A stretch of DNA of 63,816 nucleotides, counting the filler, from Reclinomonas americana ATCC 50394 (Eukaryota), in the NCBI GenBank assembly GCA_048213135.1. It is 6 parts of 5 records of this genome, joined end to end, with 100 filler letters (N's around TTAATTAATTAA, not from the genome) between each part and the next. Parts side by side here need not be neighbours in the genome. Positions count along the whole stretch, not along the records: positions 1 to 17,264 come from PS015293.1; 5 more parts are not named here. One strand, written 5' to 3'. Each line of letters opens with the position of its first letter. Within the stretch, counting starts at the first letter, position 1. The position numbers were made by a program, and so were the translations under genes. Below are positions 1 to 63,690 of the stretch, in pieces. The notes under the pieces are model-generated. The model searched no databases. It was not told the origin of the DNA and saw only the letters and a program-made list of their open reading frames with translations.

Positions 1-1374
1 ACCCGACGTCTCAATCAACACGTAGAACGGGTACGGCTTCTCGAACGGCTCACTGCGGCCCGTGAGTGAGTTTCCTCGCCTGCACACGGCGAGTGACAAC
101 ACACAAACACACTCACCGAGCGCCATTGTGGGCCAGATGCTTGATCACAGTCTCGCACGACTGGCGATCAAAGAACTCGAACGCTTCACACATTATCCGC
201 AATCAGCCACACGAGTAAACGGGCAGAGCGACGCTTGGTACGCACCCGACAAAATATCGCTCAGTGCCGCGCGCGCCTGTGTAAACACTTGCAGCACTTG
301 CGCGAAAGAATCGAGGCCCAGAACGCACACGTTGAGCGCACGCGGTCGCACCGGCAGCAGCACCGCGGCCTTGGTGATCACTGAACAAGAAACGACGGTG
401 AATCAAAGCAACAAGACCACGCGTCATGCAACTGACACACTGACCGCCGAGCGTGCCCTCCGCTCCGATGAATATCTGCTTGAGGTCGTACCCCGTGTTG
501 TCCTTGCGCAGCGTCTTGAGCATGTCCAGCACGGTACCGTCGGCCAGCACCACCTCCAGACCGAGAGTGTTGCCGTGCAGTGAGCCGTACCGCAGATATC
601 GAAGACCGCCGGCATTGGTCGACAGATTACCACCAATCTGGCAGCTTCCCTTGGCGCCCAGATCCAGCGGGAAGATGTAACCGCGCTGCGCCGCATACGT
701 GTCCACTTGCTCCAGCACACAGCCGGCCTCGCAGGTGAGAATGCCACTGACGGCATCGAAATCTCTGCGGCAGACCAATCATTGAGAAGGCCACAAGCGC
801 GACACTGCATGCACATGCAAGAACGCAACACAATCTTGTTCATGCGCGACAGTGACAGCACCACCTCGTCGTACACTGGCACCGAGCCACCCACTAGCCC
901 AGTGTTGCCACCCTGCGGAGTCACCGCCAGACTGCGTGCATGACAGTGTCGGAGAATCGCGCTCACTTGCTCCGTGGTCTTCGGGCGCAGTGCGAGCTTC
1001 GACTGACCGCAGTTGTGCTTCAGCCAGTCTCGGTTCAACGGCTACGCACACACGCGCGCACATACAGTGAGAGTCACGCAGACAACTCCTCATGTGCATG
1101 ACAACGACCTCACCTCCAACTCACTCGCATCAGTGACGAGGCCGTCGCGGCCAACAATCGACTCAAAGTGAGCCACGTCCTTGTCTGTCAGCTGTGCGCA
1201 CGCACACACTGGAGTGAGTGGGAGGAGGAGAGTGACTGGTGCACACAAGTCACACACCTTTGCAAAGCGCGCATCGCGTGGTGTGTCCTTGCGCGCGCCA
1301 AAGAGACTCGTCATGCAGCGCACATGTGCACGCGCAGGCACAGTGCCACAGCGATGCCACAGCGCACTCAGCAT
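1..1374 (-). CDS. D2HGDH: D-2-hydroxyglutarate dehydrogenase, FAD-linked (multi-exon, runs off window start)
   Basis: Spliced translation has [57 protein letters not shown] and LSAFEFFD. Arg-rich N-terminus resembles a mitochondrial presequence. Confidence 0.93.
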
Positions 1375-1447
1375 GACGAGCAAAGAGTCTGCAGGTCAAC
1401 CAACGAATGGACTTTGTGACTGCATAAGCACACTCATTCACTACTCG

Positions 1448-2887
1448 ATGGCCAGCGGAGGCAACGCGCTGACACGGCGACCACTGCTGCTGCTGGTCAT
1501 TGTGGCCCTGCTGGCCGGTGCCTTTCTGCTCGGTCGCCTGTCCACGCACATGTGGTCCAACAGCGCATCGCTGTCATCGTCATCGTCTTCATCATCGTCG
1601 TCTTCTTCTTCGTCATTGTCATTAGCCAGTGGTGCATTGGGCGGTGCAGTGGCTGGTGGGCGAGCATCGGCTGCGTCGGCCTGGACCAACTGGGCGCTGG
1701 CATCGAGTGTGTCCTCAGTTGCGTGCCAGACGCCTCTTCGATCGCTCTCATCCTTCCCTCCCACTGTTGCTGCTGTAGGCGAGTGGCGAACCGCTGCAGT
1801 GGTCGCAGCGACCGATCCGCGTGTGCCTCATGCATCCGGTGACATCGGTCGGTGCGCCTGGCACGATCGAGGACCAGCCGTCGCTGACCAAGTTTGTCGA
1901 CTCGTTGGCGCGCACGGGCGAGGCGGCACCGCGGTACGAGTATCGCCTGCTTGTGGGCTACGATCTGTTCGACATGGTGTGGGACCAGGATAGGAACCGG
2001 CAACGGTATGTGGAGTTGGCGAAGCAGCGAGTGGCGTCGTCGGGAGTGCATCTGGACGTGCGCTTCGTGCGGCTGTACGGACTCAAGGGCCACATTCTGG
2101 CCATCTGGAACGTGCTGGCGCGGCAGGCGCTTGTCGATCAGTGCGACTACATTATGCCCTCCAACGACGACTTGCTGCTGAAGACCAAGGGCTGGACGTC
2201 GCTGGCGATCCAAGTTGCGTTCCCCGCTCCGCTCCGCTACGATGAGGGTGAGGGTGTTCATTGCGTCGTGTGTGCACACAGCAACTCCTCGTCAGTCCGG
2301 TCGCTCCAAACTTTGGCCTGGTGGCCTTCTTCGACGAGTACATGCCCGAGGTATCGATCTCTGTGTTGTAATGCAGAAACTGCAGAGAAGCTGACTGGGT
2401 TTCACACAGTGGCCGACGTTTCATCTCGTGCATCGCACTCATTTGGAGATTTTCGGTGCGGTGTTGCTGGTGCCGTTCGTCTTCGTCTTTATTTACTCAA
2501 CGATAGCCGACAGACGGCGTGTACTACCCGTTCCACTTCAAGGCGTCCCTCGTCGACCCGGCCATCTTTGATGTGTACGCACCGTTCCGTGGTGCCATTC
2601 ACCGCACCGATCTCGTGGTGCAGAATCGCGTGGGCATCGACAACGGAGCTGCCAGATACGACTACGACGACAAGTGCGACGAGGTGTGCGTGGAGCTGTT
2701 CAAGAGGTGGCGCCTGCACCTCGCAGACGTCATCGACAACAACGGCCTCTATCGATCGTGGATGCCCACCGCACAGCAGCTGCAAACGTTCCGCTCGGAA
2801 ACATTCAAGGATAAGTCATATCGCAGCGGTTCACTATGGGTTCTGGAGCAGGCGGCAGCAACAACGCCGCCACCATCACCAAAGTAA
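1448..2887 (+). CDS. Type II membrane glycosyltransferase-like protein (GT-A fold, multi-exon)
   Basis: N-terminal TM (LLLLVIVALLAGAFLLG), poly-Ser stem, then YRLLVGYD...AIWNVLARQA...DYIMPSNDDLLLKTKGW with a DxD-like NDD motif. Confidence 0.65.
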
Positions 2888-2956
2888 TGTTAGAGTGAAT
2901 GCCGACGTGTGTAAGAGGAGAGCTCCGCGTCGTCGTCGTCGTCGTCATCGCTTCGC

Positions 2957-3346
2957 TCACATGATCTGCCAGCCGCTAACCAGGCTGACCATCGGCAGGA
3001 GACACTCGGCCGGCTGGCCACGCAGGTTGACGTGCGCAGTGACGGCCCGACGCGAATCGTGGTCAACGGCGAACTGATCGCCATGCTCGGTATGCAGAAA
3101 GGCGGTGACCGCCTGCTTGAGACGGGCCAGTTCGCTCTCCGGATCAATGAGGATGCTCCGGGCGCCCCACATCCGTGTCGGCACCAACGGAAGCTCCGTG
3201 ACGCCCTCCGCCACATGCGTCTGGCAAAAGGCACGCACAAGCTCAAGCGCCGTCTGCGCCTCGGCGGAACCCGCCGACTTGCCATTGACGTACACCATGG
3301 TGAAATGGTTGTCGGAACCAGCGTCGAGGACAATTGCAAAGCCCAT
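2957..3346 (-). CDS. Small intronless 2H-phosphoesterase-like protein (129 aa)
   Basis: ATG in A-rich context. Two His motifs about 90 aa apart: NHFTMVY and TAHVNL. Confidence 0.5.
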   Translation of the reverse strand: MGFAIVLDAGSDNHFTMVYVNGKSAGSAEAQTALELVRAFCQTHVAEGVTELPLVPTRMWGARSILIDPESELARLKQAVTAFLHTEHGDQFAVDHDSRRAVTAHVNLRGQPAECLLPMVSLVSGWQIM

Positions 3347-3503
3347 TTTGTGTTGAAGTTGATTTGATGGTGATGTTGAGGTTGTTGAAGATGCAGATGA
3401 GGTCGGCTCGCAGAAGCTCGGATAATGTGTGTATGTTGGTAAACCGTGTACACGCGCGCGGTATTTGTAGCGACCTCAACTCGATCCGATTTCGTTCATG
3501 GAC

Positions 3504-4800
3504 TCACGTGGACTTCACGAATCGTGCTTGGAGCCATTTCCGGTCCATGCTCACTGCATAAATATGCACGAAAAAAATGAGTTGACCGTAAAACCCCACC
3601 ACAAGAGACGAGAGTGGAGTAGGCAGTGGACTAGAGGAAAAAGGAAAGGGAGAGACGGAAAACACACCTTCGAGTTTCCGATTTTCGACCGTCCGCTCAT
3701 GCCGTTTCATGTCGATCAGAACAAAGCCGCACTCGCGCATCATACACACCAGCTCGTCTGCGTAGCAAATGAGCACAACACACGCACACATGCACCATGG
3801 TAGCACTGGCCTTACGCACCTGGGTCGAAAAAGTACACCAGCGTGCCGTCACCGCGCATGAAATAGTGATTGCCGAGCTCGGCCGGCGCACCGGCCTCGT
3901 CCTCAAACTGGCGCTGCCGCAAGTCGTCGCGCAGGTAATCGCGGAACAGCAAGTGACCGCCGACCTTCATCTTGCGGTTGATGCCACGCAGCGCCGCCGA
4001 CATGGTTTGCGGCGGCAGTGCGCTGAGCACAAAGATGAGCGAGCACAGGTCGACGCCACCGTCGGGAATCCCCGCCGGCAGCACTCCTGTCATCAGATCG
4101 CACGTCTGCATGTGCACGCTGCGTGGTAAGCACACTTGACTGACCGCCCCACACGTGCGACACACACGCACCGTGGCCACAGCGCCCGCCTGTTGCATCA
4201 ACTCATGCTCATTGACAATGCGCACAGCGGCCGCCGACACATCAAACGCATGGTACTGCCAGTGTGGATGATCGCGCATGACCGGGAACAGCGTGTTGCC
4301 CGCACCACAACCGGCCTCCAAGTACACAATCGCGGGCGACGATGAAGAAGAAGAGGGCTCCAACTCGGGGAACTCACGCGCCAAGTAATGCCGATCCTTG
4401 AAGAAGCGGTCGCCTTTCTCGCGGAAGAAGCGCTCCCAGGCGTGGTTCGAGCGCGACTCGATGCGCTGACGCCGACGAAGCTGCACTGGCAATGAGAAAC
4501 CGAAAGGAGCAGAGGAGTGTGTGGGGGAAGGGAGAGACGCGCCCGTGGATTGCACACATCGGGGTTGGGCATGTACGAGGCGAACCCCGCCGTGTATGGA
4601 CGATATGCGGGATCACCACGATACACCTCCTCTTCTTCCTCTTCTTTTTGCTCTTCCTCTTCCTCTGCTGCCTCGTGCACATGCACATGTCCGCGCTCCT
4701 CCTCCTCAGCCTCGTGCACAGACATCCACTGTCGCCACGCGGCTGCCACCAGTGGCGAGGCAAGTGCGAGCACAGCAGCTGCTGCGTTTGCGCTCCACAT
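3504..4800 (-). CDS. tRNA m3C methyltransferase, METTL6/METTL2/Trm140 family (multi-exon)
   Basis: WERFF...FFKDRHYLAREFPEL, SAM motif YLEAGCGAGNT, LIFVLSA, LLFRDY...D, YFMRGDGTLVYFF, C-terminal MDRKWLQARFVK. Confidence 0.88.
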
Positions 4801-4883
4801 TCACTTGTGAGTCTGTTGGTCCGCACTCAGCGAAAAACGCTCACTTTTTTTCGCAAAACACTGAGAACTTCTCACACGCCGAC

Positions 4884-7598
4884 ATGCAAGACGGTGGCTT
4901 GTGGCAGCTGAGTGTGGACCGTGGTCGTCAAGTGTGGGACTACGTGGTGGAGAAGCAGGCGCAGAAGCTGAATCGCACAGTCGAGGAGCATCTGCTGTCG
5001 AAGAAGAGTGTTGCGTCGTCATGATGACATGCGTGAGAAAGTGAGAGGCACACACACACATGCACGCACTCTGTTATAGAGGCTGTTGGTGTCACACGCA
5101 TGTGCTTATGCGCGTGATGAATGATGGATCGCAGAATGATCCGCATTCTCGATACGAGAATCTCGAGCCGGTGTTTGGTTCGACTGATGAGTCTGTGCGC
5201 GCCGCCATTCGCTTCTACTCGACCATTCAGACCGAGGATGGCCACTGGGCTGGTGACTATGGCGGTCCCATGTTCCTCCTGCCAGGTGCGTGTCGCTGGA
5301 GATGAGGGGAGCGATTGGTCAATGCCATGGCTTCTCATGAAATTGTGCACGGGCAGGCTTGGTGATTACGTGCTACTCGGCACAAGTGGAGCTCCCGGAG
5401 CCGCACAAGCGGGAGATGATTCGGTACTTGAGCAACCAGCAGCGCGAGGATGGTGGCTGGGGACTGTTGCGTGCGCGACGATGCGTTATCCCGCGTCCTC
5501 GCCTGGCCGCTCATCTCGTCTCTGGCAGGCACATCGAGGGCCGATCGACCGTGTTCGGCACTGCGCTCAACTACGTGTCGATGCGCCTTTTGGGAGTGGA
5601 CAAGGACGATCCACGTGCGGTGCGTGCACGCCACTGGCTGCACGAGCACGGCGGTGCGTGCGGAATCCCCTCGTGGGGCAAGTTTTGGCTCGCCACTCTC
5701 GGTGTGTACGAGTGGCATGGCATGAACCCCGTGCCGCCGGAGCTGTGGTGGTTGCCGTCGTGGTTGCCGTTCCATCCGTCGCGCATGTGGTGCCACTGCC
5801 GTGTGGTGTATCTGCCCATGGTGTGTGTGAGAAAGGAGAGGGAGCCAGAGAGTTGCCACTTCTCCACTTCAGCTCATCCCGTGTGTATGCACACAGGCCT
5901 ACATCTACGGTTCGCGATCTCAGTGTCGCCGCACTCCACTGATTGACTCGTTGCGCGAGGAGTTGTACCCGATGCCATACGATCAGATTGACTGGCCGGC
6001 ACAGCGCAACTTTTGCCACCCGATCGATCTCTACAAGTCACACTCGTGGCTGATGAAGACCGCCAATGGTGAGTTTCTCTTCGAGGCCTCCTCCCTCCTG
6101 TGTGCATGCTCACTCTGGCACGCGCAGCCGTGCTCAACGTGTACGAACCAATGCACTCGGCGCGTGTGCGCAAGCTCGCTCTCGACGAGTGCATCGACCA
6201 CATTGTGCACGAGGACAAGACGACAAAGTACATTGACATTGGACCCGTCAACAAGGTCTGCAACATGCTGTGCTGCTTCTACGCCTTTGGCCCCGACGAC
6301 GAGAGATTCACGAAGCACATTCCGCGTATCTACGGTGCGCAACGTCAACAATCGCGACATGATTCTTCTCTCTCCTCGACTCTAACACTCGCGCGTGCCG
6401 CAGACTACCTGTGGCTCTCCGACGATGGCATGAAGATGCAGGGCTACAATGGCTCACAACTGTGGGACACGGCGTTTGCCGTGCAGGCCATTATCGATAC
6501 GGGCCTGGGTGAGGAGGTGGCCGACACGCTGCAGCGTGCCAGCGACTACATTGATATTACGCAAGTCGACGAGGATGTGGACCAGCTCGACAAGTACTTC
6601 CGACACATCTCCAAAGGCGCCTGGCCCTTCTCGACCAAGGATCACGGTGAGTGGATGGAGTGCGACCTTGGTCGCCGCTGTGTGCTCAAACGACACGCGC
6701 AGGTTGGCCGATCTCGGATTGCACGTCGGAGGGTCTGAAGGCGGCCATCAAACTGCGCCACTTGCCGTACATCACCAACCCCATTCCGAAGGAACGCCTG
6801 TACGACGCCGTCAACGTGTCGCTGTCGATGCAGAACGAGTGCGGAGGGTGGGCGACATACGAGCTGATGCGCGGCTCGAAGATCCTCGAGTTGTGCAACC
6901 CATCCGAGGTCTTTGGCGACATCATGATCGACTACCCATACGTCGAGTGCACGAGCGCGTCGGTGCAGTCACTGCTGGCCTTTGCGCACGACTTCCCGCA
7001 TCACCGCAAGGCCGAGATTCGGCAGTCGATTGAGCGCGCAATCAAGTTCATCGAGAGCATTCAGCGCGCCGACGGCAGCTGGTACGGCAGCTGGGGTGTG
7101 TGCTTCACCTACGGCACGTGGTTCGGCGTCGAGGCTCTGGTGGCGGTCGGTCGTTCGTACGAAAAATGCCCGCATGTGCAAAGTGCGTGCGACTTTTTGG
7201 TGGGCAAGCAGATGGAGTCGGGCGGGTGGGGCGAGACCTTTGAAGTTACGCTCACTCGTGTAAGCTCCAGCATTTCCCCTGTCGATCTCACACACGCATT
7301 TACTTCCTCGCAGTCGTGTGTGGTCAAGGAGTACTCGCAGAATGAGTGGGCGCAGGTAATCAACACATCATGGGCTCTCCTGGCGCTGATGGCTGCCGGC
7401 TATCCCGACCAGAAGGCGATCGATCGCGGCATTCAGCTACTGCGACGGCGCCAGCTGCCGAACGGCGACTTCCCACAAGAGTGCATCAGTGGCGTCTTCA
7501 ACGCCAACGCCATGATCAGCTACTCCAACTACCGCAACATCTTCCCCATCTGGGCTCTCGGTCGCTACCGCCAGCTGTATCCGCAATCCAAGCTCTGA
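4884..7598 (+). CDS. CAS1: Oxidosqualene cyclase, cycloartenol-synthase type (multi-exon)
   Basis: [22 protein letters not shown] repeats, [20 protein letters not shown] and [16 protein letters not shown]. Carries the Tyr/His/Ile triad diagnostic of cycloartenol synthases. Confidence 0.93.
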
Positions 7599-7920
7599 TC
7601 GCAGCGACGTCGCGCGCGATCATGCCTTTCTTGAATTTTCTGTTTAGATGCTGCTTGCATTCGCTTCTTATACCTCTTGTTTTCTTTATACTCTGTTGTC
7701 TGCACTGAATGAATGCAAGGTTCGATGTACACCCGCCCTCACGTGATGTGCGGTCGACGTCCGGGAGAAGATTCTCCGGACCGCATCTTTTGTCGTCTCT
7801 CTTTCTTTGTGAGCCAAGCGCGCTGGTACGTACAATATGCATATGTGCATAAGTGGGTGGGTGGGTAGGTGTACTCGCCTGACTGACGCTCTCTCATGCC
7901 TGTATGCAGCGACGCGGATC

Positions 7921-10626
7921 ATGGCCAGTGAATCATCATCATCATCGTCGACATCATTTTTGCGTTTTGAGCCGCTGCACTGTGTAATCGACCCGGCTTT
8001 CTGGTGGGAACTCGCCACGGCCAAGTTGGATGTGCTGCACGCCGACGAAGGACCATTGCCGTTGCGAGTTGCGTCCACAGTGAGGGAATCTCCACTCCAG
8101 GCAATGTGCTGACTGTGCTTGTTGTGTGTGTGTGAGGCAGGCATTGTACTCGTGGAGTCAGCGAGCATTCACTCCACTTCCGCTGGCGTCGGCAGCGGCC
8201 GCCACTGCGACAGCCGACACGGATGAGGATGAGAGCGAATCCGGACACGCGACAACAACGACAACAGAGCTCTGTTATTCGCATGGAATGCAGGTGGGCG
8301 ACGGATCGACTCCGGCGCGTCTCTTTGTGCCGAGTGGAGCGCTCGACTGCCGCTCCGACTCGCTGCCGACGCCATTCGGCGGCGACTACGCTGTGTGGGT
8401 GCGTGGCTCAGTGATGGTCTACAACAACAAACTGGCGATGAAGCACGTGGACAAGGCGGCGATGCTGCAGGAGATTGTGCGCCGCATGCGAGCCGAGTGG
8501 GCGACTGCGGAGGCCACCGAGCATGGCCCCCAGTTGCACGGCTTCATTCTGCTCGTGTACATGGACATCAAGAAGCAGAAGAACTGGCACTGGGCGGCGC
8601 ATGCGGCACTGGTGACGCCACTGCCGGCTGTCATCACCTCCGCCTCGCTCCTCGATGAGGTCCCGGCGACGGCCACTGCCTTGAATGTTCACAATGCGCA
8701 CCACGTTGAGACCGTGTGCAACTGGTTGCGTCACCACAGGCATGCGCACAGCTTGGCCGCGTTCGCCATCAAGTCCGGCCCATCTGGTGCCGTACATCCA
8801 GAGGTGTTGTCCACTGCCCTCTTCCGTCACCACTGCACCATGCGAGGTATGCTCGTTCAGGCTACTCACAGTTGCGCATGGCGACGACAACGAACTCACT
8901 GATTGTGCCGATCGCACAGAGACGAGTGACGGTGTGGAACTGCTGGTGGATCCACGTTCACTGCTGGTGTGCGTCCTCGATCCGTGTGCTCGATCCGACA
9001 GTGTCGGGTGGCCGGCTCGGAACTTGCTGTACTGGTGCCTCGATGCAGTGCAACCCATGCTCACCGACCGCAGGTTTTGTCGCCCGCTGTCTTTACGTCG
9101 GGAGTTTTGTTCGCATCTCACGATCGCACGCAGCCTGCCTGCCACTCTGTCGTTCACGCTGCTGGCGCTGCGGCACGATGCGGAGCACGGACTGCATCAT
9201 TCGCGACTCCTCACCCTCCAGTTGGCCATTCCAGTGCGCAGCGAGGACGGCGAGGAGTCGGTGCGCTGCGTCGGCTGGGAACGCAGCAGTGATGGGGAGT
9301 TGTTGCCGCAGACCACCGACCTCGGTCTGCTGGTCGACCCAGAAAGGTGAAGACATTCTTCTCAACACTGTCGTTGTATTTTCCCTCGCCTCGCTACTCA
9401 CCCGTCACTCGTACCCACAGCATGGCTCGTCGAGCCTCGGTGCTCAACCTCTCGCTGATGCGCTGGCGTGTGGCACCCAAGCTGGACTTGGACCTAATTG
9501 CATCCACACGCTGTATGCTCGTCGGTGTCGGCACGTTGGGATGCGATGTGGCGCGCGCATTGTTGGTGAGTTTNNNNNNNNNNNNNNNNNNNNGAGAGAG
9601 AGAGAGAGCAGCACGGTATTACGTGGGTTCTCATTTCTTTGCTGCGCATGCACAGCACGTCCGATCCGTCCACATGTCGTTCCCGCTCCTGGGTGAGCGC
9701 GTGCCCGTGGCCAACACCAAGCGCGACATGGAGACATTTGGGGCGCTTTTGCAGGAGGTGGACGTGGTGTTTTTGTTGTTGGATTCGCGAGAATCCCGTT
9801 GGTTCCCGGCCGTGATGGCCGCCCTCCACGACAAGGTGCGTTTTTTTGTGCGCAGTGCCTCTTGAGTGCCTCCCCTCATCCACTGCGTGCGCAGGCTGCA
9901 ATCACGGTTGGCCTCGGATACAGTTCCTACACGGTCGTGCGTCACGGCTCGCCCAGTGTGCCGCTCGATCAGCGGCTCGGTTGCTGGTTTTGCCCCGACC
10001 CATCGGCCCCTCGACCTGTGCGTTGCTGCCCCCCACCCACGATGTGCACGAGATGCACTCCAGTTGTTCACTTTGTAGTGTGCAGCCGTCGTCCAACCTG
10101 ACACTGGATCAAAAGGCCACCGTCAGTCGCCCGGGAGGTGCCATGGTGGTGTCAGCCATGGCGGCAGAGTTGCTGGTCAACATGCTGCATCATCCGCTCA
10201 GGTGCTCCCAGTCTACGCCGACTACTTCCACCCTCATTCTCATTTTCCCTTTTCCGCAGACACCGCGCCGGTGCTCAGGTGCCGGCCACGTCGCAGGCGC
10301 ACGGCCCGCATGTGATTGGCGACGTGTCGCACTCGAGCCCCATGGGCGAAGTACCGCACGAGCTGCGCGGTTCACTCGAGGACTTCTCCCTGACGCCCAT
10401 GCTTGGAGCCGCCAACTCGCAGTGCATCGCCTGCTCGTCGCACGTTCTCGACGCCGTGCGCACCGGCGGCGCGGAGTTCATCAATCGATGCACGCGCAGA
10501 CCGCGAGTGCTGGAGATGATCACCGGACTGACGCCGTTGCTGGAGGAGGCCGATGATCTCAACGAGCACGCACACGCAGAACAGTGGACATGCGGCGACG
10601 AACCAGACGAGTGGCAAGTTTTGTAG
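7921..10626 (+). CDS. ATG7: ATG7-like E1 enzyme homologue (multi-exon, internal gap at 9574-9593); catalytic Cys position is Ala
   Basis: IDPAFW, DP...GWPARNLL, VGWER, LNLSLMRWRVAP, GVGTLGCDVARAL, DVVFLLLDSRESRWFP, LGCWFC, TLDQKATVSRPG, VPHELRG, CIACS. Confidence 0.88.
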
Positions 10627-10653
10627 GCAGGGTAACAATTAAACGGACTGAGT

Positions 10654-12271
10654 TCATTTTGTTGATGGTGGTGGTGGTGGTGGTGGTGGTGGTGGTGGCG
10701 GTGGCGGCGACACGGAGAGCGCTCTGAGACCACCGAGCGCGAAGAAGCGGTCGTGCACCTCGCGCCACTTGTCGTGTCGCTGCACATTCATGGCGACGAT
10801 TTGCACAAAGAGCTGCTCCCACAGAGGCTGCGGATTGGGATTGTCGGAGGCCACTCGATGATACTCGGGATACACGCGCACCAGCCGTCTGTGCGTCCCT
10901 CCCCCGCAGTGAGAAACAAACCAATGAGCAGCGGTGAGGCACGGGGCACATACCTGACTGGGGTGGATGAGCTGGAGGCACCCAGTTGTTGTTGCTCAAA
11001 AGCGCGCAGCTTGCCGGCCTCCTCGAGTGCCTCGGATTCGCTCACATTGAGCACCCGATTGACGGCCTCGGGACGCAACAGCACAGCCTCGGCGCTGGCA
11101 TACGAGTAGAGGTGGCACATGGCGACGAGCTCCGGTGCCAGTTCGCGATGGTGAAACTGATCGTACATGCCACTGTGTCGATGGTGCTCCCGCATGCGCA
11201 GTTGCGGCCGATCACGCTCGTCGAAAGGATCCACAAAATCGAGCCACTCGTTTCGCACAAAACTCTCTCGCCACGGATTCCCGTCAATGTCAACGCATCC
11301 GGGCGGCGTGCTCCAAGCGTACTCGCGCAGCACCGTCCCCGGCCCCGGCATCTCCAAAATGAACCGACCTGCATGCACCACGTCAGTTGAAGGAGTCACA
11401 GTCTACCTCTGCTGCTCGAGACACGCACCCTGCATCTGCTCAATCGTCGGCAGCTGTCGATTCCATTGCCATTCGTCGCGCGGCGCCAACTTGTCTGCAC
11501 CATCTTCGTCAGCAGATGGATCATTGGCCCCAACTGACGACGGACAGCAACTCACCACCCAGCACCTCACGCAGCATGCCCGCCAGTCGCCTCTGCTGCT
11601 CCTCCGAGCACCGAATGTCGAGCGAGAGAATGACACCAAAACTACGCAAAAATGAAGATCATCAGCGGTGGATAGCTGTGTGCGCGTGTGCGTGTATCGC
11701 TCACTCACGGACTGTGCTCGAACGCATGATCGCGAATCACATGCAACGCCTCACGCAACCGCACACTCTCCGTCGTACGCCCGTGCGACAACACCGGCTC
11801 ACCATCGGGACCATCAAACAAATCCACTGTCATATCAATGAGCGTCACATGAGAGTCGTCAATCACACACACTCACGCACATTCACGCACGCACATTCAA
11901 TGCATCGGCACTGTGAGGTGGTCAATGCGTGTCGAATGGCCTCGAGAGAGCACGCGGAAAAGAACTGCCATGTGCGCACACTGGTGTTGTGCGACGACTT
12001 TATGTACACATGACTGAGAGGTGCTGTGTGCAGATCGTGCGGGCCTGCAGGGATCATTGATACTCCAGGCAAGGGAAGAGGTGGTGGTGGCGGTGCGTCG
12101 TGTTGAAACACCCAGCGATGCTGAGCAAACAAGAATGAACAACTACAGTGCGACAACTCCAGCTTGAGAGATGTGAAGAGAAAGAGGCACCTGTAAGTGT
12201 GAGTGCAGCCATGATGCGCTGACACCAGTGGCGCCACAGAGGGCCAGTGTGAGCCACGGCCACAGGCGCAT
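10654..12271 (-). CDS. Phosphoinositide-specific phospholipase C, X+Y domains only, with putative signal peptide (multi-exon)
   Basis: X-box: PLSHVYIKSSHNT...[21 protein letters not shown]...HAFEHSPFGVILSLDIRCSEEQQ...LPTIEQMQGRFIL. Y-box: PELVAM...NVSESEA...RVYP...SDNPNPQPLW...QIVAMNVQ. Ends in poly-Pro then a stop. Confidence 0.85.
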
Positions 12272-12494
12272 CTCCTCTCTCGCCGGGACAGTCGTGATTT
12301 TGCGGGAAGTGGCTCGCGCGATCCACTTGAACCACGCGCGACTTTGACGAGCAACAGCTGCACGTGACAGTGGTGTGTGTGTATGCTTGTGTGTGTGTGC
12401 GTGCGTGTGTGCGTCACATGGGCTGACATTTGTGAAATTGTGCTTGTGTGTGCGCGCGCGATGTCGACTCTTGGTCAAAAAGAGCCTCCACACA

Positions 12495-15400
12495 ATGTCG
12501 GCGCCTCAAGGCGGTGCTTCAGGTGCCGCAGCAGCTGCAGCAGCTGCAGCAGCGGCGGCAGGTGCGCGACTGGCGGGAGTCACTGCGCAGATGCCGTGGT
12601 ATGGAGGTGTGATTGATGCAGGCGGTGCTGTGGCCACCCCGCTCCTCTTGCCACTTGTCTCGTGTGTGCCGCCTCCGTTTCTGTACCCGGCAGGTGGAAG
12701 TGTGGTTGGTGGGACGGGTGTGACGGCCTCGCCGCATGGAATGGCGATGCGACCGGTGATGGAGGTGAGGGCGGGGCGAATTGAAGTGTGTTACGACGAT
12801 CATCAAAGTGCGCACTTACACAACGCGCGTGCCCCAGGTGAATGCGTTTCCCGCCGAGATGTTGCAGCAGAGTTGCGTGTTTGTGTGCTGTCGTCGCCAC
12901 TGCAGTGTGTGTGTATGTGTTGATGTGCGGGGACAGGTCGATCCTATGTTGTCGATCCGCGACTGGCGCAGCCGGTGGTGCCAGAGGGTGAATCGTCGCG
13001 CGCTCTGCTGCATGCTCTTGACAAGACCAATGCCGTGTTCACGCAGCAAGGTGCATTGTCTGTCTCTGTGCGTGCATGTGTGAGTGTTCGTGATCTGACT
13101 CGCCGCCAGTCTTGCCGCCAGTCTTGCGTCATCCTCCACCGCCACCACCTGCAATGCCGGTAACACCACCACCACCACCGCCACCACCACATGTTCCTAT
13201 ACAAGCCGCCTCGCCTGCAGCAGCGCCACCTCCTCCTCCTCCGCCAGCGCCTGCCGTACCCTCCACTCCACCACCACGTGTTGTGGATTCCGACGGTGGC
13301 TGGGTCGCAGCCTTGCCGTCCAAGAGTCAGTCGGCCAAGAAGGCCAAGGCGACCACCGCTGCTGCGGTTGCCTACCGTCGCAGTGGTGGGCCACCGACAC
13401 CACCTGCTCCGCGTCCGACCGTGTCCGCCGTCAGCCCCGCTGTCTCGCTGCTGTGCTCGCCTTCCACGCCAGCACCCACGTTTGTCTCACCACCGCCATC
13501 AGCTTCGCGGCAACCACAGCCACCGCAACTCCAACAGCAGCAAGCGCAGCAACAGCAACAGAATGCCATGTCCGTGGAGAAGACGCCGCGTGTGGCACAC
13601 GAAAACGTTCGCCGAGATCTGTCGGCTGCGGTCAGCGCCGCTGCCTGTGCCCTGCAGCAGACGGCACAGGCGAGGAATCCGGTCAAGCGAAAGCCCTCGC
13701 TCAATGTCTCGCGCCGCTCGGTTTGTGAATCAGTGTGTGAGAGAGAGAGAGACATGCATGTGCTGCTGTTCTGCGCACCTGATTATGATTGTCGCGACAG
13801 TTGATGCCGACGGCAAGAGCGCCGCTCTCCTCCGAATCGTCCGATGAACTCGAGGCCGCGGCCGACATGTTCGGTGCGTGTGGAGAACGCGCGTGTCCCC
13901 GGTTGCTGATTTTGTGCGACTGACTCGGGCTGGGCAGATCACTTTCGCGAGTGTGCGACGACACTGGCGGAGGAGGCAGTGGAGGACGTCACAGACGCGA
14001 TGCTGAAGAACTTTGAGACCACGTTTTCTCGTGCTGCGGCTGCCGGTGACGGTGAGCTCGTACATGTATGGTACGCTCTTGGCGCCCGCTGCGTGCTAAT
14101 CCTTTGATCCTGCCAGGCACCACGGCCGACACGGGTCTCCTGCCGACCGTGTGCACCAAGCTGGAGGCCATTATCAGCTCTTTCTTCGACCGCGGCAAGC
14201 AGTTTGCCGACTTCCTCGCCGGTCCGGGAGCTCCCGCTGATCCTGCGCTGCTGTCGCTCTTGATCAAGAGCATGCGTGCCTCGTGTGTACTGTTGCGCGT
14301 TGTGGCGTCTCCAGAAACGCCGCAGGATCTACGCGACTCTACGGTGGGTGCAGTGGCGAAATGATCATGTGCGTGCGTTTGAGCTGATGTGCTGTCGTGC
14401 AGCTCATGGATGGCGTGGTGCGTGTAAGCGATCTGGTGCGTTTTGTGCTCGACACGGTGCTGTTTCCGTACTTTTCTCGCGTGTACGACGACAAGGCGCC
14501 AAGAGGTGCGCGCAATCGTGTTGGTGTCATCTTTGTATTTCCAGTATCCCTCCACTCACTCCCTGAGCAGCGACACTGAGTGAGGACGCCAGCAAAGTGA
14601 CTGCTATGCTCTGCGTTGTGCTGCGATTGCTGGCGCCTTTCATGCAACTCAATCACGCATTGCACGTGCCACTGGAGGATGTGTGTGCGCGTGTTTACGT
14701 GCACGGGTCCCTGGTGCGCGCCAATTCCTCCAGAGCCTACGACGATGTGGGCGAATTGCAGTCGGCGGCCATTGTTCTGCTGGTGCAGGTATGCTGAGTG
14801 ATACGCGACAGTGTCCGTCAGCGCTCGCTGATCTTCTGCATCACAGATCTGGCAGCACTCGCAAATGGACATGCGTCGCAGCATATTGATGGACCTGATT
14901 GTGCACCTGGGCTCCATGCCACGTCGTCGTGCCGTTGTCTTGTTGCGTTGGTGTCACGACTCATCATTGTGTGGCGCATCTTGACGAGGCTGCGTGCGTT
15001 TCACAGTGTGGCGGGCTGCGAGCACCGACCGGCGGTGTTCACTGTGCTGCTGTTGGAGCTGTTGCAGGCTTCGTGTCAGCTGCCGCCGCAGGCATCGGCT
15101 CTGTCGGCCGACATTATTATGGAGGGCGAGGATGTTGGTGATGCGTGGTCCGAACCAGCCACGGTGCTGCGCGCCCTCGAGGAGTCCAATCAGGCTCTGT
15201 TGCAGTGCTGTAAGTTCTTTGCCACCAATGTGATTGCCAGGTTCTTTTCGTGATGAAGAAGACACGCGCGTGCTCTACGTCACACTGCATGTTGCTGATG
15301 CCGTTCGTGCGGTTGCTGCGGCAGGTGGCTGGATGACGAGAGGTCGGCTGCCAATGTCCGCAAATCGACGCGCGAGACCGTCTTGCGTGATGTGATTGAC

Positions 15401-17264
15401 TTTCTTCTCACCGACTTGTGTCAACTCGTGGATACTCCCGAGTATCCTGCGTCGTCGCTGCTGTTGCTTCGGTTCCTGTTCGATGAATTGCACGCGGTTG
15501 TGATGATTGCGGACGCGAAACTCAAGGACGGCAAGGCGGCCGCAGTCGAGATGCTGGCGCGCATCGGTGCCCGTGTTCGTGGCTTCTCCACCAGTCGCCT
15601 GGACGCGTTCATTCGACCGCCTGCACACGTGTGGCAGGTATTGTCGTTTCGCGATCTTGAGAGCGTTGCAGCTGCATTGGCTCACACCCTGCTCCAGCCC
15701 ATCGCCTACGCAAGTCTCAACGAGGCGCCTGTGGAGTGTGTCTGCAAGAAGGTGCATTTTCATTTCAATTCGTTATCATATGCACACGCACGCAAAGAAA
15801 CTGACGTTGGCGTGTGTGGCGCGCAGCACGAGCCGGGCCGAAGTGGAAATCTTACTGCATGCAGCCGCTGCTCGCGATGGTTCCACAATCGGTGTGTGGA
15901 TCTGCCAGAGATGTGCGACGTGCCGAACTGGCTCTGCGATGACTGCCAGTTGCGACATGTGTGCACTGTGTGCTGGTCGCGACTTTGTCTCCTCACGCGT
16001 GGTACCTCGACCTGCACAGACTGGTGCAGAAAGTGGCACTTGTGCGCACACTGTGCGGCAGTACCGCTTCTGCTTCCACCACAAGCAGCAGCGCCAGCAC
16101 AGCAGTGGCCATGTCGGTGGACGTGCAGAATGAAACCTCTGGCAGTGCCGACGCCGTTGCTACCTCTGACGAACTGCGTGCGGCCGCCATTCTACTGTTC
16201 TGCGAGTTTCTGTCGAGCAATGCAAGAGGCGGTGTGTGGTGTCTGCATGCATTTGCGTCATTACGCCTGTGTTGTCCGCACGTGTTGACGCTGCTTATGC
16301 GCACGCAGCCTTTGAGACCTCGCTGTTGTGTGCGCGTCAGTGTGCTATTGCCGATTGGTGGAGTCGATCGTCTCTCGCAAGTCGCACAGCGACCGCTACC
16401 GACGAGGCTGTTCGCTCGGTTCGTGGCTCCCCATCTCTCTTTGCTCGTTCTCTCGGGTCGGTATTTTGCGTGACATGTTGATATGCAGCAGAAGCCGGAG
16501 AGGAAGCGTCGAAAGGTGGAACCCGCGAGCGCACCGCCACTCAGCTCTGCTGATTTGGTGGCCGTGGCGTGCTTCCGAGAGAGGCCCACTGGTGGTCGTC
16601 AGCGGTGAGTGAGTGTGCATGTCATGATCGTGTGTAGACTGTACTGAGCAGAGCCGGGTTGGGTGCGCAGGATGCACGTGTCGCGTTTCCGAGCACACGA
16701 GATTGCGCGACTCCTGCGACTTTCGTTCGCCGCAGTGAACAAGTTGGTCCACGACAGTGTCGGCGTGGCGCTCAGTGTGTTGCACAACGCGGGCCCTGCG
16801 TTGTTGCAAGCGAGCGGAGCCAAGGCGCTGAAGACGCTCATTTTCACCGACCATTCTCTCTTGCGCACCGATGTTTCGTGCCCCGTACACACTCTGCGCG
16901 CGTCCATCTGGTGGACTCACTGTTGTGGTGTGCGACAGCGACGCATCGTGAAAACCATTCAAGACTCGATGTCGTCGAATTCGGCCAGCGTGCGCGCCGA
17001 GGCCATCTTGCTACTCGAGCAAGTCATTGGGGCCACGGCGGCGGAGGACCACGACGCTCTCTTCAACATGGTGGTCGGCATGTTGCAAGACCAGAGTGTC
17101 ACTGTGCGCAAGAAGACAGTGGAGCTGTTGATTCAGTTCTACGCCCCGGATCCCTTCCTCGATCGCAACGTCGAGGTGTGTATCCAGCTAGCCGGCGCCA
17201 ACACTGAGGACGTTGACCGCGCAGCAGTTGCGCTACAATCCACCTGCGTTCCTCGTCCTTTATG
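12495..17264 (+). CDS. SCC2: Cohesin loader SCC2/NIPBL homologue with internal PHD finger (multi-exon, 3' truncated by gap)
   Basis: Pro-rich N-terminus; FLLTDL...PEYPASSLLL; CVC...CSRCSRWFHNRC...WLCDDC; HEAT repeats SASVRAEAILLL and LQDQSVTVRKKTVELL. Confidence 0.78.
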
Positions 17265-17364
17265 NNNNNNNNNNNNNNNNNNNNNNNNNNNNNNNNNNNN
17301 NNNNNNNNTTAATTAATTAANNNNNNNNNNNNNNNNNNNNNNNNNNNNNNNNNNNNNNNNNNNN
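17265..17364. other. Assembly gap linker (N44-TTAATTAATTAA-N44); repeated around 42225, 49224, 58261 and 62532
   Basis: Identical 12-mer with stops in all six frames, centred in 100-bp N blocks. Confidence 0.97.
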
Positions 17365-22043: not shown

Positions 22044-23181
22044 TCACTCGGCAAATCGTCTGCTCAGCTCCTCGTAGTCCTCGTGCGCAACGAGGCGATG
22101 CACGCAAATGCTGTGCTCCGTGATCGGTTCCACGGCGTAGCGCTTCGACTGGCCGGGAGCATCGTGGAAACGCGTGTCCGTCACAAAGTGCACCGGCACA
22201 TCGGCGCGGGCAAACCAGTACGACAACGAGCAATCGTCATATCCCAGCATCTCCAGAGCGGACGCGATTGGTACTCGCCGCAGCCAGGCCACCAGGTCCC
22301 ACGACAGCGTGACCACGAAACCCAATGGAAACTCGTACACAGCACCACCACGAGTCGCCGTGGCCGGTGAACCCCATACCAATCGCTCCCGTGGCAGCCG
22401 AGACAGCTCGCGCTCAAACGTGACTGTGCGCAGCACAATGTCTGGATCGCACTTGGCCACGTACCGCACAAGTGTTCCCTGGTAGTGGTCGTGTGCGGCC
22501 GCAAACCACGCTTGGAGCTTGCCGGTGTGGATGTTCTCGCGAACAGTCAGGAAGAACAGGTCGCCGTACTGCAGCTGCTCGGCGTGCAGCTGTGCAGCGA
22601 CCCGCGCCGAGCGTGGACCGCCAAGCACGAATACTACTTGCACTGTGCCGTGTGGATTGCGCGTGCGGTGGTACACGTTGCTGAAGCGCATCCAGGTCTC
22701 ACGCATAGTATTGCGCGCCTTGAGGCCGGTGTCGATCGAAAAAACACCGAGCACAATCGTGACTCGTGAACCCGGTGGGGGTGGCGGATTGGCCCGCACG
22801 AACCGCAAACCGCAGACTGGACATTGCACAGTCGTCGGCTCGTTGCGACCGGAGTCCAGCACAAACCCCGCGCTGTACGGACACAAGGCCGGCACTGCGC
22901 GCTGCTGCCGCGACTTGGAATCCGCCTGAGCAATGCGCAGCGAGCGCAGCGCGTCGTCTTCGCTAAACACTCGTGTCTTGGCCGGTGGCGGGCACGGCAT
23001 GGGTGGTGGCGCAATCCGCGGCGGTCTCGGTGGCTGCGACAAAAACAACAACAACAACAGAAAACAGTTGCTCAGGCGCTGGCCAAGCAACAGCGAGCCA
23101 CACAGCACAGCTCACCATAAAGTGCGCGACAAAGCGCTGCATGTAGACAGGGAAGCAAACATTGGTCAGCAATCCCATCTC
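22044..23181 (-). CDS. Beta-1,3-galactosyltransferase-like protein, GT31 family (5' end in gap)
   Basis: RNTMRETW, VVFVLG, EQLQYGDLFFLTVRENIHTGK, YVAKCDPD, LSWDLVAW, DDCSLSYW. Confidence 0.8.
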
Positions 23182-27247: not shown

Positions 27248-30200
27248 ATGACAAGTGTGGACAGCTCTCTTGATCTCTCTCCTGTCGACCATGTGCGCGC
27301 GCTGGTCAAGAATCCACAGAGCGACATTGTTGCGTGCCACACTCACGCGTGTGCTCTTGTTCCTCGCCACACACTGGCACTCATCTGTGTGTGCGTGTGC
27401 TCATTGTCATCATGATCAGGCGTCCGTGCTCTCCTTCGTGCAGCGCTCATGCGCGAGCTCCAACAGTGTGGACATGACGGCAGCCGAGGAGGCTGCCGTG
27501 TGTGCACTGGAGCTCGATGAGGTGCAGCGTGGAGCAGATCTCATGCGGTTCGTGTTGTTGTCCGACCGCAGTTGTCTCTTGGGGGTGTTCTTTATTTATC
27601 GACATCTTCCACAGCGCCCTGCTGCAGTTTCATGGACTGCTCTCGCGCCGCGCGCCGCGTGGACAGGCGCTGCTTCGAGTGGCCATTCAGCGGAAGCGAA
27701 TCGAGGCGAGAGACTGTTCTTTGTTATTCATTGTTGTTGTGGTGCGTGACCTCATGCTCTCTCCTTGCCCACAGTGCTGCCGCTTGCTGCTTGTCTCGGG
27801 CGCCAGCACCGACAAGTTTGAGGACGACTACGGTGACGAGACGCCGCTGATCATGGCCGCAGTTACGTTTGGCGGCACGCAAGAACAAGATATCGGCTGG
27901 CTGACATGTTTTGTTTTTCCCTCATCCACACAGGAGGTGTGCAGCAGCGCCATCTTTCGCACGCTGTTGGATTTCGGAGCCTCGCTCTATGCCGTGGACA
28001 CCTCAGGCAACACCATTCTGCACGTGGTTCGTTGTAGGAGGCTGAAGAGCTGTTATCTTGCGACACTCACTGCGGAGAGCACAGTGTGCCAAGGTCGGCA
28101 GTGGCGAGCTCGTCGACATTGTGCTGCGTCGCTTCGACTCTGCCGACGCACGATGCAAGTTCACATCACTCGCCGAGTTTGTTAGTGTCACCAACTCGCT
28201 CGGTCAGACGGCCGTGCACTGTGCACTGATGTCGTTGCGTCTGCGCATCACAGCAGGCAGCTTATGTGCTCTAACATTCGCGTGTGTGTTGTGTGGAGCA
28301 GATCACAGCGGTTGGCTATGGACGATGGTGAGGCGACAATCACCGCTGCTGTAAGTGTTGCAACAGCGCAGCTCATGTTGTGTCTCCCCTGCAGCCACCA
28401 TGGCATCCCTGGCTGCGGATCCGCCCCTGGCGATTCTCAAGAGTATCCTCACATTCGCTGGCGATCGCATGTCGGCGGTGAGTGCACGCTCTCCCTTGTC
28501 GACGCGCTCACCTCCACTCACACGTTGTGTCTCCAGTGGACACGGCCGGACAAACAGGGTTGCACGCCGTTGCATGCGGCGGCCGAACACGGCAGTGTCG
28601 CCGTCGTCGACTTCTTGTTGGCCCGCGGCAACACAGTGTACGCCAAGACGTTTGACGAGGTTTGTGCGTGTGTGTTTCTTGTGTCTGTGCTTGCCACTCA
28701 AAACCATGCGCAGCGAACGGCACTGGACGTGGCGCGTGAGAAGGGTCGACCGGATGTGGCTGCGCGGCTCGTGGCTCACACGTCCTATCCTGCTTCCCCC
28801 ACTCTGGGCAAGGAGGACGGACAGAGGGAGCCTCTCAACGCCATGTGGACGTACGGTTCGCCCCCTCGCAGCGTGTCGTCTCCGGCGTCGACGTGCTGGT
28901 CTCCGGCGGAGGGGAGCGTGCGCGTTCTTCCCGACAGCCCCTCATCGTCGCCGATCAGACAGCTCTCCCAGTTTGGTCTCCCCGAGGTCGACGTGGCCAC
29001 TCTGCGTTGCTCGGTGATTGTACGCACCGAGTTTGAGGTTTGTGGTACCCGAGTCGAAGAAGGCTTGCCTCGCACGCTTACACCCCTGTTCGTTCCCCTC
29101 CAGCGGCTGCAGTACATTATCGGTGGCCGGGAGGCGGCGGCACAGGAGGCACTGTGGACCATTTTGCAGCTCGAGGAGAGCAACAAGATGGAGACTCTGC
29201 TGCGGTATGTCATGCGTGCGTCCACCCAGTCAGCCAGCCAGTCCACTCGTCTGCTCACTCGTGTGCCACCAGTGAGTTGCTGCGTGATCAGCAGGTGCTG
29301 CTGGCCGATCCGGTGCAGGCGGGTGGCCTCCTCAAACGTGCCATTGAGGCCGACCGACCAAAGGTACGCGCGCTTTCCTTCGCACTGTGTGAAACACTCC
29401 AGGTGCCTCACACATGCTATTGCGTTCCAGTGGGTGCTGTTGCTCCTGGAGGCCGGCGTGTCTCCATCAACCTTTCCCGGTGACCCACATGGAGACATTC
29501 CGTTGTTTGCCGCCGCCGTTGCGAACATCCTGCCGCTTTTCTCTGGATCTCTTTCTGTCGATTTGCTCATCGGTGCTCACCTTGCAGCGTCTGCATTCGC
29601 TCGACATTATGTTGACGCTGGTGGACCACAGCGTGTCCATGTACCAGGTTGACCGTGCAGGCAACACGCTGTTGCAAGTGGTACGTGACCAGCATCTTCG
29701 TCTTCGTTGCCTGCTTGCATCGCAGCAACGATGACTGAGCGATTCTTGCAGTGCGCCGCCGAGAGAAATGTGTCGGCCGTGGATCTCATTCTACGCCGCT
29801 TCACCCCGAACGATACTTGGGCGACACTGGGCGAGTACTTGTCGCACACGAATGTTTACGGGCAGAATGCGGTGCACTGTGCCGTGCTGCAGTGAGTACT
29901 CGTCGATATTGTCGAATCTCTGCTCCCCATCGCTCTCCTGACACATACTTGTTCCTCCATGCCGCAGTCGAGCGCAACTCAGCAGTTCTGTGTACTAGTC
30001 CCTGTTCAGTCTCTCTTTCTGCCTCCCGCTCACTCTCAGCTGTGCACAGACCGCGTTCAGGATCCGGCCGCTGCCTCGTTTCAGATTCTCCAGCACCTCT
30101 ACCGTGCCGGCATGAGCGAGACCATCAATGTGAGATCGCCCGTTTTCGTGTGCATCGTCGACCGCATGTTCGTGCTCTGATAAAAGTTTCCGCGCGCAGT

Positions 30201-49179: not shown

Positions 49180-49555
49180 NNNNNNNNNNNNNNNNNNNNN
49201 NNNNNNNNNNNNNNNNNNNNNNNTTAATTAATTAANNNNNNNNNNNNNNNNNNNNNNNNNNNNNNNNNNNNNNNNNNNNTCTCTCTCTCTCTTTGTGCCT
49301 GTTGCTGTTGTGTCGTCATTGTACTCTTTGTGCCCTTCATGTGACCACAGCTGTGCGCACTCCCTCCCTCCCTCTCTGTGTGTGACTGTGTTGAGCTCCA
49401 CATCTGCTTTCCTCTCACAGTGATGCTGATGATGATAATGGAGAGTGCATCGTTTCCTCCCCCCCCCCCCTCCTCCTCCTCCTCCTCCATCTTCTTCTTC
49501 TTCTTCTTCCTTCTTCCTCATCATGAATTGTCGCTGTTTTCATTCCCTGTTGCAG

Positions 49556-62184: not shown

Positions 62185-62603
62185 CTGTGGGGTGGAGGGA
62201 GAAGGGGGCATGAATACAAGGACGAGGAGACAATTTCTAAACTCCAGAGCGAGCTGCGCCTCTTTCTGCAGAATACGCTTGTGCTCCTTGCAACAATCTC
62301 AATCAAAAGGCAGCCCTTATGCAACTGAGTTTCACAGACAGGAGCTGACTCGGCACCGACCAATTGTTGTTTCACATCTAACTCGCTCTGTTCACTCTCT
62401 CCTCTTTTTCTCGCTCCATCTATTCTCGCCTGCTCTTTCTCTCCTCTTGTGCTCTCTCCTCTCCTTTGCACTCTCTCACACCGTCTCNNNNNNNNNNNNN
62501 NNNNNNNNNNNNNNNNNNNNNNNNNNNNNNNTTAATTAATTAANNNNNNNNNNNNNNNNNNNNNNNNNNNNNNNNNNNNNNNNNNNNTCCTTACCTACTC
62601 CTC

Positions 62604-62656
<53 letters not shown>

Positions 62657-62830
62657 GATTTCTCACCTGTTCACGATTTCTCTCAATACATTGGCAAGCA
62701 TCTGCTGTCGTTGTTCGAAGACATGTGTCTGTGGGCTTTTGTTTGTGTTCTTGGGATTGAGACTCATGTTCGCCTTGCAAAGTGCTCAAATCATTGCTAA
62801 ATTCTCTTCTCACCCCTTCTCCCAATGCAG

Positions 62831-63690
62831 GTCATGTACAAATCCAACGACGATCTCCGGCAGGACCAGTTGGTGATTCAAATGGTCCGTTTCATGGATC
62901 GCGAGCTGGTGCGCAACGGGCTCGATCTCAAGCTCACCCCGTATCCGGTGCTGGCCACTGGATGGCAAGCTGGTGCGCGCGCGCGTAGAAATGCCTTGGT
63001 GTTCTCCTTCCCCTTCTTGTTGACGACTGAGTTTTGCTTTTCCTATGTAGGCATTGTCGAATTGGTGAGCAACGTGTCGTCGCTGACAGACATTCTCGAC
63101 AACTACGGCAAGGACATCAAGCGCTTCCTCCGCGAGCACAACCCCGATCCGGTGGCTCCTTACGGCATCAAGAAGGAGGCGATGGACAATTTTGTGCGCA
63201 GCTGTGGTGAGTGTTGTGTTGTGTGGAGAAGCATGAGCGTATCTGTGGCGTACTCACTGTGCGCATCTCTGCCTCAGCTGGCTACTGCGTCATTACCCAC
63301 ATCTTGGGTGTGGGCGATCGGCACATGGAGAACCTTTTGATGACCAACGATGGTGAGTAGGTGGTTTGGTGCCCGCACGGCGTGTCATCTGCTCACGTTC
63401 TTGGTGTGTTTCGTGGCAGGCAAACTCTTCCACATTGGTTTGTCGTTGCGGTGATTGTGAATGTCTGTGGGAGTTGTCACTCACCCTGTTTTTGCAGACT
63501 TTGGCTTCATCTTTGGCGAAGATCCCAAGCCGTATCCACCACCCATGAAGATCACTAGGGAAATGGTGGAGGGCATGGGCGGCAAGGATAGGTGAGTGTC
63601 ATTTTGGCGTGGTACGTGAATGCGACACAGACTCATTTGCGCTGTGTCGACAGTGCCGAGTACATGAATTTCAAGGCCATGTGTGGCGAG
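62831..63690 (+). CDS. VPS34: Class III PI 3-kinase Vps34, catalytic-domain fragment
   Basis: [76 protein letters not shown]. Confidence 0.94.

Follow-up and report, generated by a model that had tools for sequence, protein, structure and literature searches.

In the canonical ATG7, the activating enzyme (E1) for ATG8 and ATG12, the N-terminal domain docks the E2 enzymes ATG3 and ATG10, the adenylation fold with its Zn site dimerises and binds nucleotide, and the C-terminal region captures ATG8. MoeB and ThiF also have a homodimeric adenylation fold with a Zn site, and they pass the activated C-terminus to an external nucleophile. Passages of reviews say that ATG7 transfers in trans, across the two protomers of its dimer, and identify the thioester-forming cysteine as Cys507 on the crossover loop of yeast Atg7 and C572 of human ATG7. 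This cysteine is treated as universal in ATG7. Here I describe an ATG7-family gene of Reclinomonas americana ATCC 50394 that encodes alanine at this position. The gene lies in a 63.8-kb stretch of DNA from the assembly GCA_048213135.1 (hereafter the window, that is, the whole stretch that was analysed) and occupies positions 7921-10626 of the + strand, with an ATG at 7921 and a TAG stop codon at 10624-10626.

The translation of window positions 10086-10140 is PSSNLTLDQKATVSRPGG, and the codon GCC at 10116-10118, within TLDQKATVSRPG, encodes the Ala. When exon 7, which bears this motif, was compared with the PDB using phmmer, only yeast Atg7 was matched (seven of seven distinct sequences, E 2e-4 to 7e-4). 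The Ala aligns opposite the Cys of yeast Atg7 DRTLDQMCTVTRPG and, in the entry 3rui, opposite a Ser. This alignment bears out a previous sequence-only reading of the locus, which had claimed that the catalytic Cys is changed to Ala. Its assignment of the thioester Cys to the TLDQ motif (yeast C507, human C572) agrees with the review passages and with the yeast alignment, and its statement that at least two substitutions separate TGY from GCC follows from the genetic code, since two base changes are needed. There is no other Cys in the crossover loop of the encoded protein. A second copy of ATG7 and an alternative exon bearing the Cys are both absent from the window, where tblastn gave no match outside the gene with E below 0.13. 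A match to the motif pattern on the minus strand at 9434 was considered as such an exon and looks like chance, and retention of intron 7 was also considered; that reading hits a stop. The thioester-forming Cys of the crossover loop, the defining feature of the ATG7 enzyme, is absent from the window protein. Because the crossover-loop nucleophile is Ala, the protein is, as judged from its translation, unable to form the E1~ATG8 or E1~ATG12 thioester.

Is this substitution found in other ATG7s? I collected ATG7 sequences with a motif pattern that left the catalytic position free, so that any residue was allowed there. Cys was found at this column in all 76 other sequences that show the motif, 15 from a protein library and 61 from metagenomes. 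For the library set, 1.84 billion representatives were searched in full by HMMER with exon 4 as the query, giving 1182 matches at E <= 1e-3; among the 150 listed, the 15 that include the motif region all have the Cys, and most of the others are exon-sized fragments. The metagenome set derives from a scan with an alignment (A1) of exon 4 and 19 fragments, which gave 470 relatives among 591 stretches. Among the best 80 loci, which were kept, 61 show the motif, all with Cys, and the other 19 are without the catalytic region, as in locus L049, whose contig stops just after the first CxxC. Two residues flanking the Ala are rare as well. The Lys directly before it occupies a position that is Met in 43, Gln in 30, and Lys in one of 74 sequences, and a Leu occupies a position that is Arg in 70 of the 74 and Leu in one. 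The Ala at the Cys column is unusual relative to every ATG7 examined. No report of a natural Cys-less ATG7 was found in main-text passages located by search terms (including those of PMC13712035, PMC11864663, PMC11449223, PMC10104450, PMC11354881, PMC12355090, and PMC5244887).

The domain content and the alignments place the gene within the ATG7 family by descent. Exons 2 and 3 each match the ATG7-specific family ATG7_N (Pfam PF16420) above its cut-off (Table 1), and the best PDB match of every exon from 3 to 8 is yeast Atg7. Exon 3 matches the chains of the yeast N-terminal domain (E 2.8e-3). In exon 4 (E 1.9e-11), GVGTLGC lies opposite GAGTLGC; in exon 5 (E 1.6e-8), DSRESRW is identical; in exon 6 (E 9.1e-6), GCWFC lies opposite GCYFC; and in exon 8 (E 8.3e-11 over 87 residues), CIAC and PHELRG lie opposite CPAC and PHQIRG, respectively. 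The matches to Pfam ThiF (19.5 bits for exon 4 and 13.2 bits for exon 5) are below the cut-off of 28.1, the queries being short single-exon pieces of a domain that lies partly in an assembly gap. Both CxxC pairs of the Zn site and the extreme C-terminal domain are kept. In these alignments and profile matches, the GxGxxG loop, DSRESRW, both Zn-binding CxxC pairs, and the N-terminal domain are all intact, as the sequence-only reading had it, and its overall claim of an ATG7 homologue without the catalytic Cys stands: the gene is ATG7 by descent, with all visible exons intact and Ala at the Cys column.

The C-terminus of the protein has an acidic run followed by W-x-x-L and ends with DEPDEWQVL. 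According to a passage of a review, C-terminal truncations of yeast Atg7 abolish Atg8 binding, and that end is needed for Atg8 recruitment. The tail encoded at 10578-10623, an acidic run ending with W-Q-V-L, has the form of a classic ATG8-interaction-type motif. It also includes a Cys 11 residues from the end; a Cys is present in only one of the 13 tails of the ATG7 panel described below.

The exon model was built from the three-frame translation and GT/AG borders. The gene has at least nine exons, eight visible and at least one in the gap. All seven visible introns are of the GT..AG type and 58-74 nt in length, with consistent phases, and the 720 modelled codons contain no stop. The visible exons are thus free of stops, as previously claimed, and the former statement that the adenylation domain lies partly in the gap at 9574-9593 was also confirmed: the assembly lacks about 53 residues there, which belong to the ATP-binding core and would lie between ...ARALL and HVRSVHMSFP.... 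In the alignment with the yeast chain, exon 4 stops at position 346 and exon 5 begins at position 400; the missing block is also visible in the panel alignment, and no trace of it was found elsewhere in the window. A (GA)n run at 9594-9608 borders the N run and may explain the assembly break. The exon-sized ATG7 fragments in the protein library all read V directly after ...ARxL(M/L), corresponding to the GT of a read-through intron. Thus, the phase-0 intron after the GxGxxG exon (donor at 9566) seems to be at the same site in many eukaryotes. Within exon 3, positions 9074-9133 form a candidate 60-nt GT..AG intron. Its length, divisible by 3, preserves the frame, and a CTCAC motif precedes the AG by 15 nt, as in the other introns of the gene. 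Exon 3 probably holds this further intron, a point that the reading frame alone cannot decide.

How far has the rest of the protein diverged? Close relatives were not found among the 150 listed library matches of exon 4 (identity 57-71%) or among the best 80 of the 470 metagenome relatives from the A1 scan (identity 54-71%). A metagenome scan with exon 4 alone gave 596 pattern matches and zero relatives. Three word-indexed protein searches were limited to proteins longer than the query, a scope that leaves out exon-sized fragments of close relatives: exon 8 gave 99 candidates, none at E <= 1e-3; exon 5 gave 49, none at E <= 0.01; and the catalytic exon extended to 40 residues gave 12, none at E <= 10. 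Of ten long ATG-to-stop ORFs of the window, none had an exact counterpart in the protein collection. The spliced model, with X at the gap, was then aligned with 13 full-length ATG7s from the library, whose nameable members are fungi, Rigifila, diplonemids, and a labyrinthulid. The cluster names of 20 panel proteins were taxonomically scattered, with a plant also among them, and pointed to no nearest group. Of the 14 sequences, the window ATG7 is the most divergent. It departs from 8 of 64 columns that are invariant in the rest (0-4 of 56-60 for each of the other 13) and from 21 of 96 columns conserved at the 90% level (2-10 of 99-104 for the others). Its mean identity in the C-terminal half is 0.41 (0.47-0.51 for the others), and its terminal branch is the longest in a quick FastTree run, at 1.33 (0.64-1.12 for the others). 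Five of the eight departures from invariant columns are conservative; the radical ones are the Cys to Ala, an Asp to Ser in LGFD, and a Pro to Leu in PMPGH. The LGFD Asp is invariant in all 13 panel proteins, and yeast Atg7 has Ile at the Pro position of PMPGH. Taken with the two rare flanking residues, this wider divergence suggests that the loss of the Cys is not an isolated change. One panel protein, P0032, groups with the window ATG7 in the quick tree, with about 39% identity in the C-terminal half. It has the same rare Leu in ...DLTLDQ... and retains the Cys, and it may be the nearest available relative.

The marks of a pseudogene, namely stops, frameshifts, lost splice sites, and lost codon-position bias, are absent from the visible exons. 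The GC content at third codon positions (GC3) is 0.73 and 0.77 in the two halves of the gene, compared with 0.55 for the GC content of its own introns, and the corresponding values for the neighbouring oxidosqualene cyclase gene are 0.73 and 0.78. The intact frame and the codon-position composition argue against a long neutral decay. In the ATG7 coding sequence, 3.5% of single base changes create stops. A neutral build-up of the excess of replaced invariant residues would take about 100 substitutions in the 2,160 coding bases and should bring about three stops in addition to frameshifts; none was seen. The neighbouring cyclase closely resembles human lanosterol synthase, which speaks against fast evolution across the entire genome; the acceleration thus seems confined to ATG7. 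The gene has thus diverged faster than its panel relatives with its coding signature retained, and I favour the view that it has for some time evolved under an altered, yet real, constraint.

I tentatively regard the gene product as an ATG7 that is maintained by selection and is unable to form the thioester, a pseudo-E1. This reading is a good possibility, if somewhat short of probable. Selection would preserve the N-terminal domain for E2 docking, the dimeric adenylation fold and its Zn site, and, at the C-terminus, the region that carries the acidic W-x-x-L tail. The pseudo-E1 would bind ATG8-type proteins, E2s, or both without thioester formation, and it may partner or regulate a Cys-bearing ATG7 that another locus encodes. 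Since ATG7 acts as a dimer in trans, the partner or regulator role would be the most economical version. The sequence-only reading had put forward both a heterodimer partner or regulator and an adenylation-only enzyme, and both are candidates here. For this gene, I infer the ongoing selection, the retained binding, and the existence of the partner.

The same observations may have another origin. The gene may have been inactivated only recently, as a young pseudogene or as an allele that lost its function and became fixed in the strain or culture sequenced, with the rest of it still undecayed, and such an event deserves attention even if I consider it rather unlikely. Laboratory removal of this Cys is treated as abolishing the E1 function, passages of reviews call the residue thioester-forming, and 3rui has Ser there; an undamaged frame, good splice sites, and coding-type GC3 are all expected after a recent event, and the assembly is a fragmentary draft. 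However, the Ala codon needs two base changes, the same loop has two further rare substitutions, and the departures from invariant columns are 2-8 times those of any departing panel member, yet stops and frameshifts number zero. This pattern suggests a constraint that has long been altered rather than absent, to the extent that the timing of the changes bears this out; a lineage with an already divergent ATG7 could possibly have lost the Cys only recently. A sequencing or assembly error concealing a true TGY codon is conceivable in a draft assembly with many N runs and with contigs chained by artificial linkers. It is nevertheless very improbable, as it requires two adjacent miscalls at a site that is about 520 bases from the nearest gap and in unique, non-repetitive sequence, and a single local error would not explain the neighbouring loop residues, which are also unusual.

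Alternatively, the protein may be an adenylation-only E1, in which the C-terminal Gly of ATG8 or ATG12 is adenylated and then attacked directly by the Cys of ATG3 or ATG10 on the other protomer, or by another nucleophile, with the thioester step skipped. What remains of the protein is compatible with this: the visible adenylation motifs, namely GxGxxG, the DSRESRW Asp, and the SRPG Arg, are kept, as are the Zn site, the N-terminal domain for E2 docking, and the tail for ATG8 recruitment, and the Lys directly before the Ala is rare at that position (1 of 74). This Lys may help a direct attack on the adenylate. Passages of reviews also liken the adenylation domain of ATG7 to MoeB and ThiF. On the other hand, the ATP-binding core is hidden by the gap at 9574-9593, the LGFD Asp that is invariant in the 13 panel proteins is Ser, and the literature passages gave no precedent for a eukaryotic E1 that passes an adenylate straight to an E2. 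I find this bypass doubtful. It is slightly more doubtful still that the window gene is the only ATG7 of the organism and is active, handing the acyl-adenylate directly to an E2 Cys or another nucleophile docked in trans.

The pseudo-E1 reading, which I prefer to these alternatives, has several points to be weighed against it. The Ala codon comes from one draft sequence, for which the library and metagenome searches gave no close relative. The 61 metagenome loci are largely redundant; in an earlier count, 74 sequences comprised 36 distinct 18-residue motifs. The panel of 13 full-length proteins is small and was picked by similarity to one 48-residue exon, and its branch lengths come from a quick tree whose support values were not inspected. 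The intact frame and the coding-type GC3 would also be expected, equally, of a very recently inactivated gene. Should the gap reflect a true deletion of the approximately 53 ATP-binding-core residues, the protein would be more thoroughly dead than assumed here. Finally, a Cys-bearing partner ATG7 was looked for in the 63.8-kb window only and was not found there. Nor was ATG3, ATG8, ATG10, ATG12, or another autophagy family found among the 148 open reading frames (ORFs) of at least 150 residues in the window, a survey that small or intron-split genes such as ATG8 and ATG12 would escape.

A Cys-less ATG7 kept by selection, if true, would either add to autophagy a new dead E1 with a regulatory role, comparable to the silent subunits of the SUMO and NEDD8 E1s, or point to a bypass of the E1 thioester step. 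It would also provide a natural tool to separate the binding roles of ATG7 from its catalytic role. If the adenylate were handed directly to an E2, this would be a natural eukaryotic ubiquitin-like cascade without the E1 thioester step. If the gene is only a recent loss-of-function allele, it would mark a eukaryote, or a strain, living without canonical ATG8 lipidation.

The features of the window are summarised in Table 1. In each of five identical spacers, at 17265-17364, 42181-42280, 49180-49279, 58217-58316, and 62488-62587, TTAATTAATTAA is flanked on either side by 44 N; this linker is closed by stops in every one of the six frames. Thus, the window joins at least six separate contigs or scaffolds. 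ATG7 sits on the first of them (1-17264), and genes that lie on different pieces are not necessarily neighbours. Upstream of ATG7 lies the oxidosqualene cyclase gene; the nearest Atlas clusters of its product are cycloartenol or lupeol synthase, as family-level matches only. Microsatellites of the (GGT)n and (GT)n types, at 10660-10705 and 12380-12440, flank genes.

Table 1. Exons and other features of the ATG7 gene, and other genes identified in the window
Feature	Position	Strand	Content or evidence
ATG7 exon 1	7921-8079	+	Start codon and beginning of ATG7_N; GT donor at 8080; ATG7_N profile positions 1-35, 24.3 bits, below the cut-off of 27 for the 53-residue piece alone
ATG7 exon 2	8141-8846	+	ATG7_N, Pfam 43.1 bits, cut-off 27; AG/GT borders
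ATG7 exon 3	8920-9346	+	End of the N-terminal domain, with GWPxRN and GWE motifs; Pfam ATG7_N 43.9 bits, cut-off 27
ATG7 exon 4	9421-9565	+	Linker and start of the adenylation domain, GVGTLG (GxGxxG) loop; phase-0 donor GTGAGT at 9566
N run within the intron after exon 4	9574-9593	.	20 N; block of the ATP-binding core absent from the assembly
ATG7 exon 5	9656-9835	+	Adenylation domain with DSRESRW
ATG7 exon 6	9895-10017	+	First Zn-site pair GCWFC and start of the crossover loop
ATG7 exon 7	10086-10201	+	Catalytic motif of the crossover loop, TLDQKATVSRPG
Ala codon GCC at the thioester-Cys position	10116-10118	+	Translation and yeast Atg7 alignment
ATG7 exon 8	10260-10626	+	PHELRG, second Zn-site pair CIAC, extreme C-terminal domain, acidic tail ending DEPDEWQVL, stop TAG
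Oxidosqualene cyclase, upstream neighbour of ATG7	5121-7598	+	Last exon 346 bits against human lanosterol synthase
Long ORF	206-1041	-	Pfam FAD_binding_4
Long ORF	3815-4612	-	Pfam methyltransferase
Long ORF	11866-12474	-	Pfam PI-PLC X
Long ORF	15299-16285	+	Pfam PHD
Long ORF	22047-23111	-	Pfam galactosyltransferase
Long ORF	27478-32778	+	Pfam ankyrin repeats
Long ORF	40164-41255	+	Pfam RGS
Long ORF	44161-45575	-	Pfam HECT
Long ORF	62801-63337	+	Pfam PI3/PI4-kinase

The closest known systems are the canonical ATG7s, that is, yeast Atg7 (PDB 3VH1-3VH4 and 4GSK/4GSL) and human ATG7. Like the window protein, whose ThiF-type adenylation domain is visible in part and scores below the Pfam cut-off, they combine ATG7_N, a ThiF-type adenylation domain, and the extreme C-terminal domain, and share with it GxGxxG, DSRESRW, two CxxC pairs, and PHxxRG, as well as a C-terminal tail of acidic/aromatic type. 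The window protein differs from them in having Ala for the crossover-loop Cys, Leu for Arg, Lys for Met or Gln, and Ser for the LGFD Asp. The yeast Atg7 of entry 3RUI is likewise without the nucleophile: it is an ATG7 C-terminal domain with Ser at the Cys position, presumably a trapping or inactive mutant. As 3RUI lacks the nucleophile and yet has the full domain, the fold and the binding of Atg8 do not need the Cys. However, 3RUI is engineered and only its nucleophile was changed, while the window protein is a natural sequence with additional changes.

SAE1 (with SAE2/UBA2) and NAE1 (with UBA3) have an E1 fold and no thioester Cys, and they pair with an active subunit, which makes them a precedent for a pseudo-E1 partner; according to a passage of a review, SAE2 holds the active adenylation domain, the Cys domain, and the UFD (ubiquitin-fold domain). 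In contrast, SAE1 and NAE1 are ancient separate families, while the window protein is clearly of ATG7 descent and no partner was seen in the window. MoeB and ThiF differ from the window ATG7 in that they have no ATG7_N and no E2, and their substrates are sulfur carriers. Literature passages on the human and mouse ATG7(2) describe a natural isoform that is unable to lipidate ATG8s and for which E1-independent roles have been proposed. ATG7(2) arises by skipping of an exon that ATG8 binding requires, and its Cys is retained, while the window protein has the end that binds ATG8 but not the Cys.

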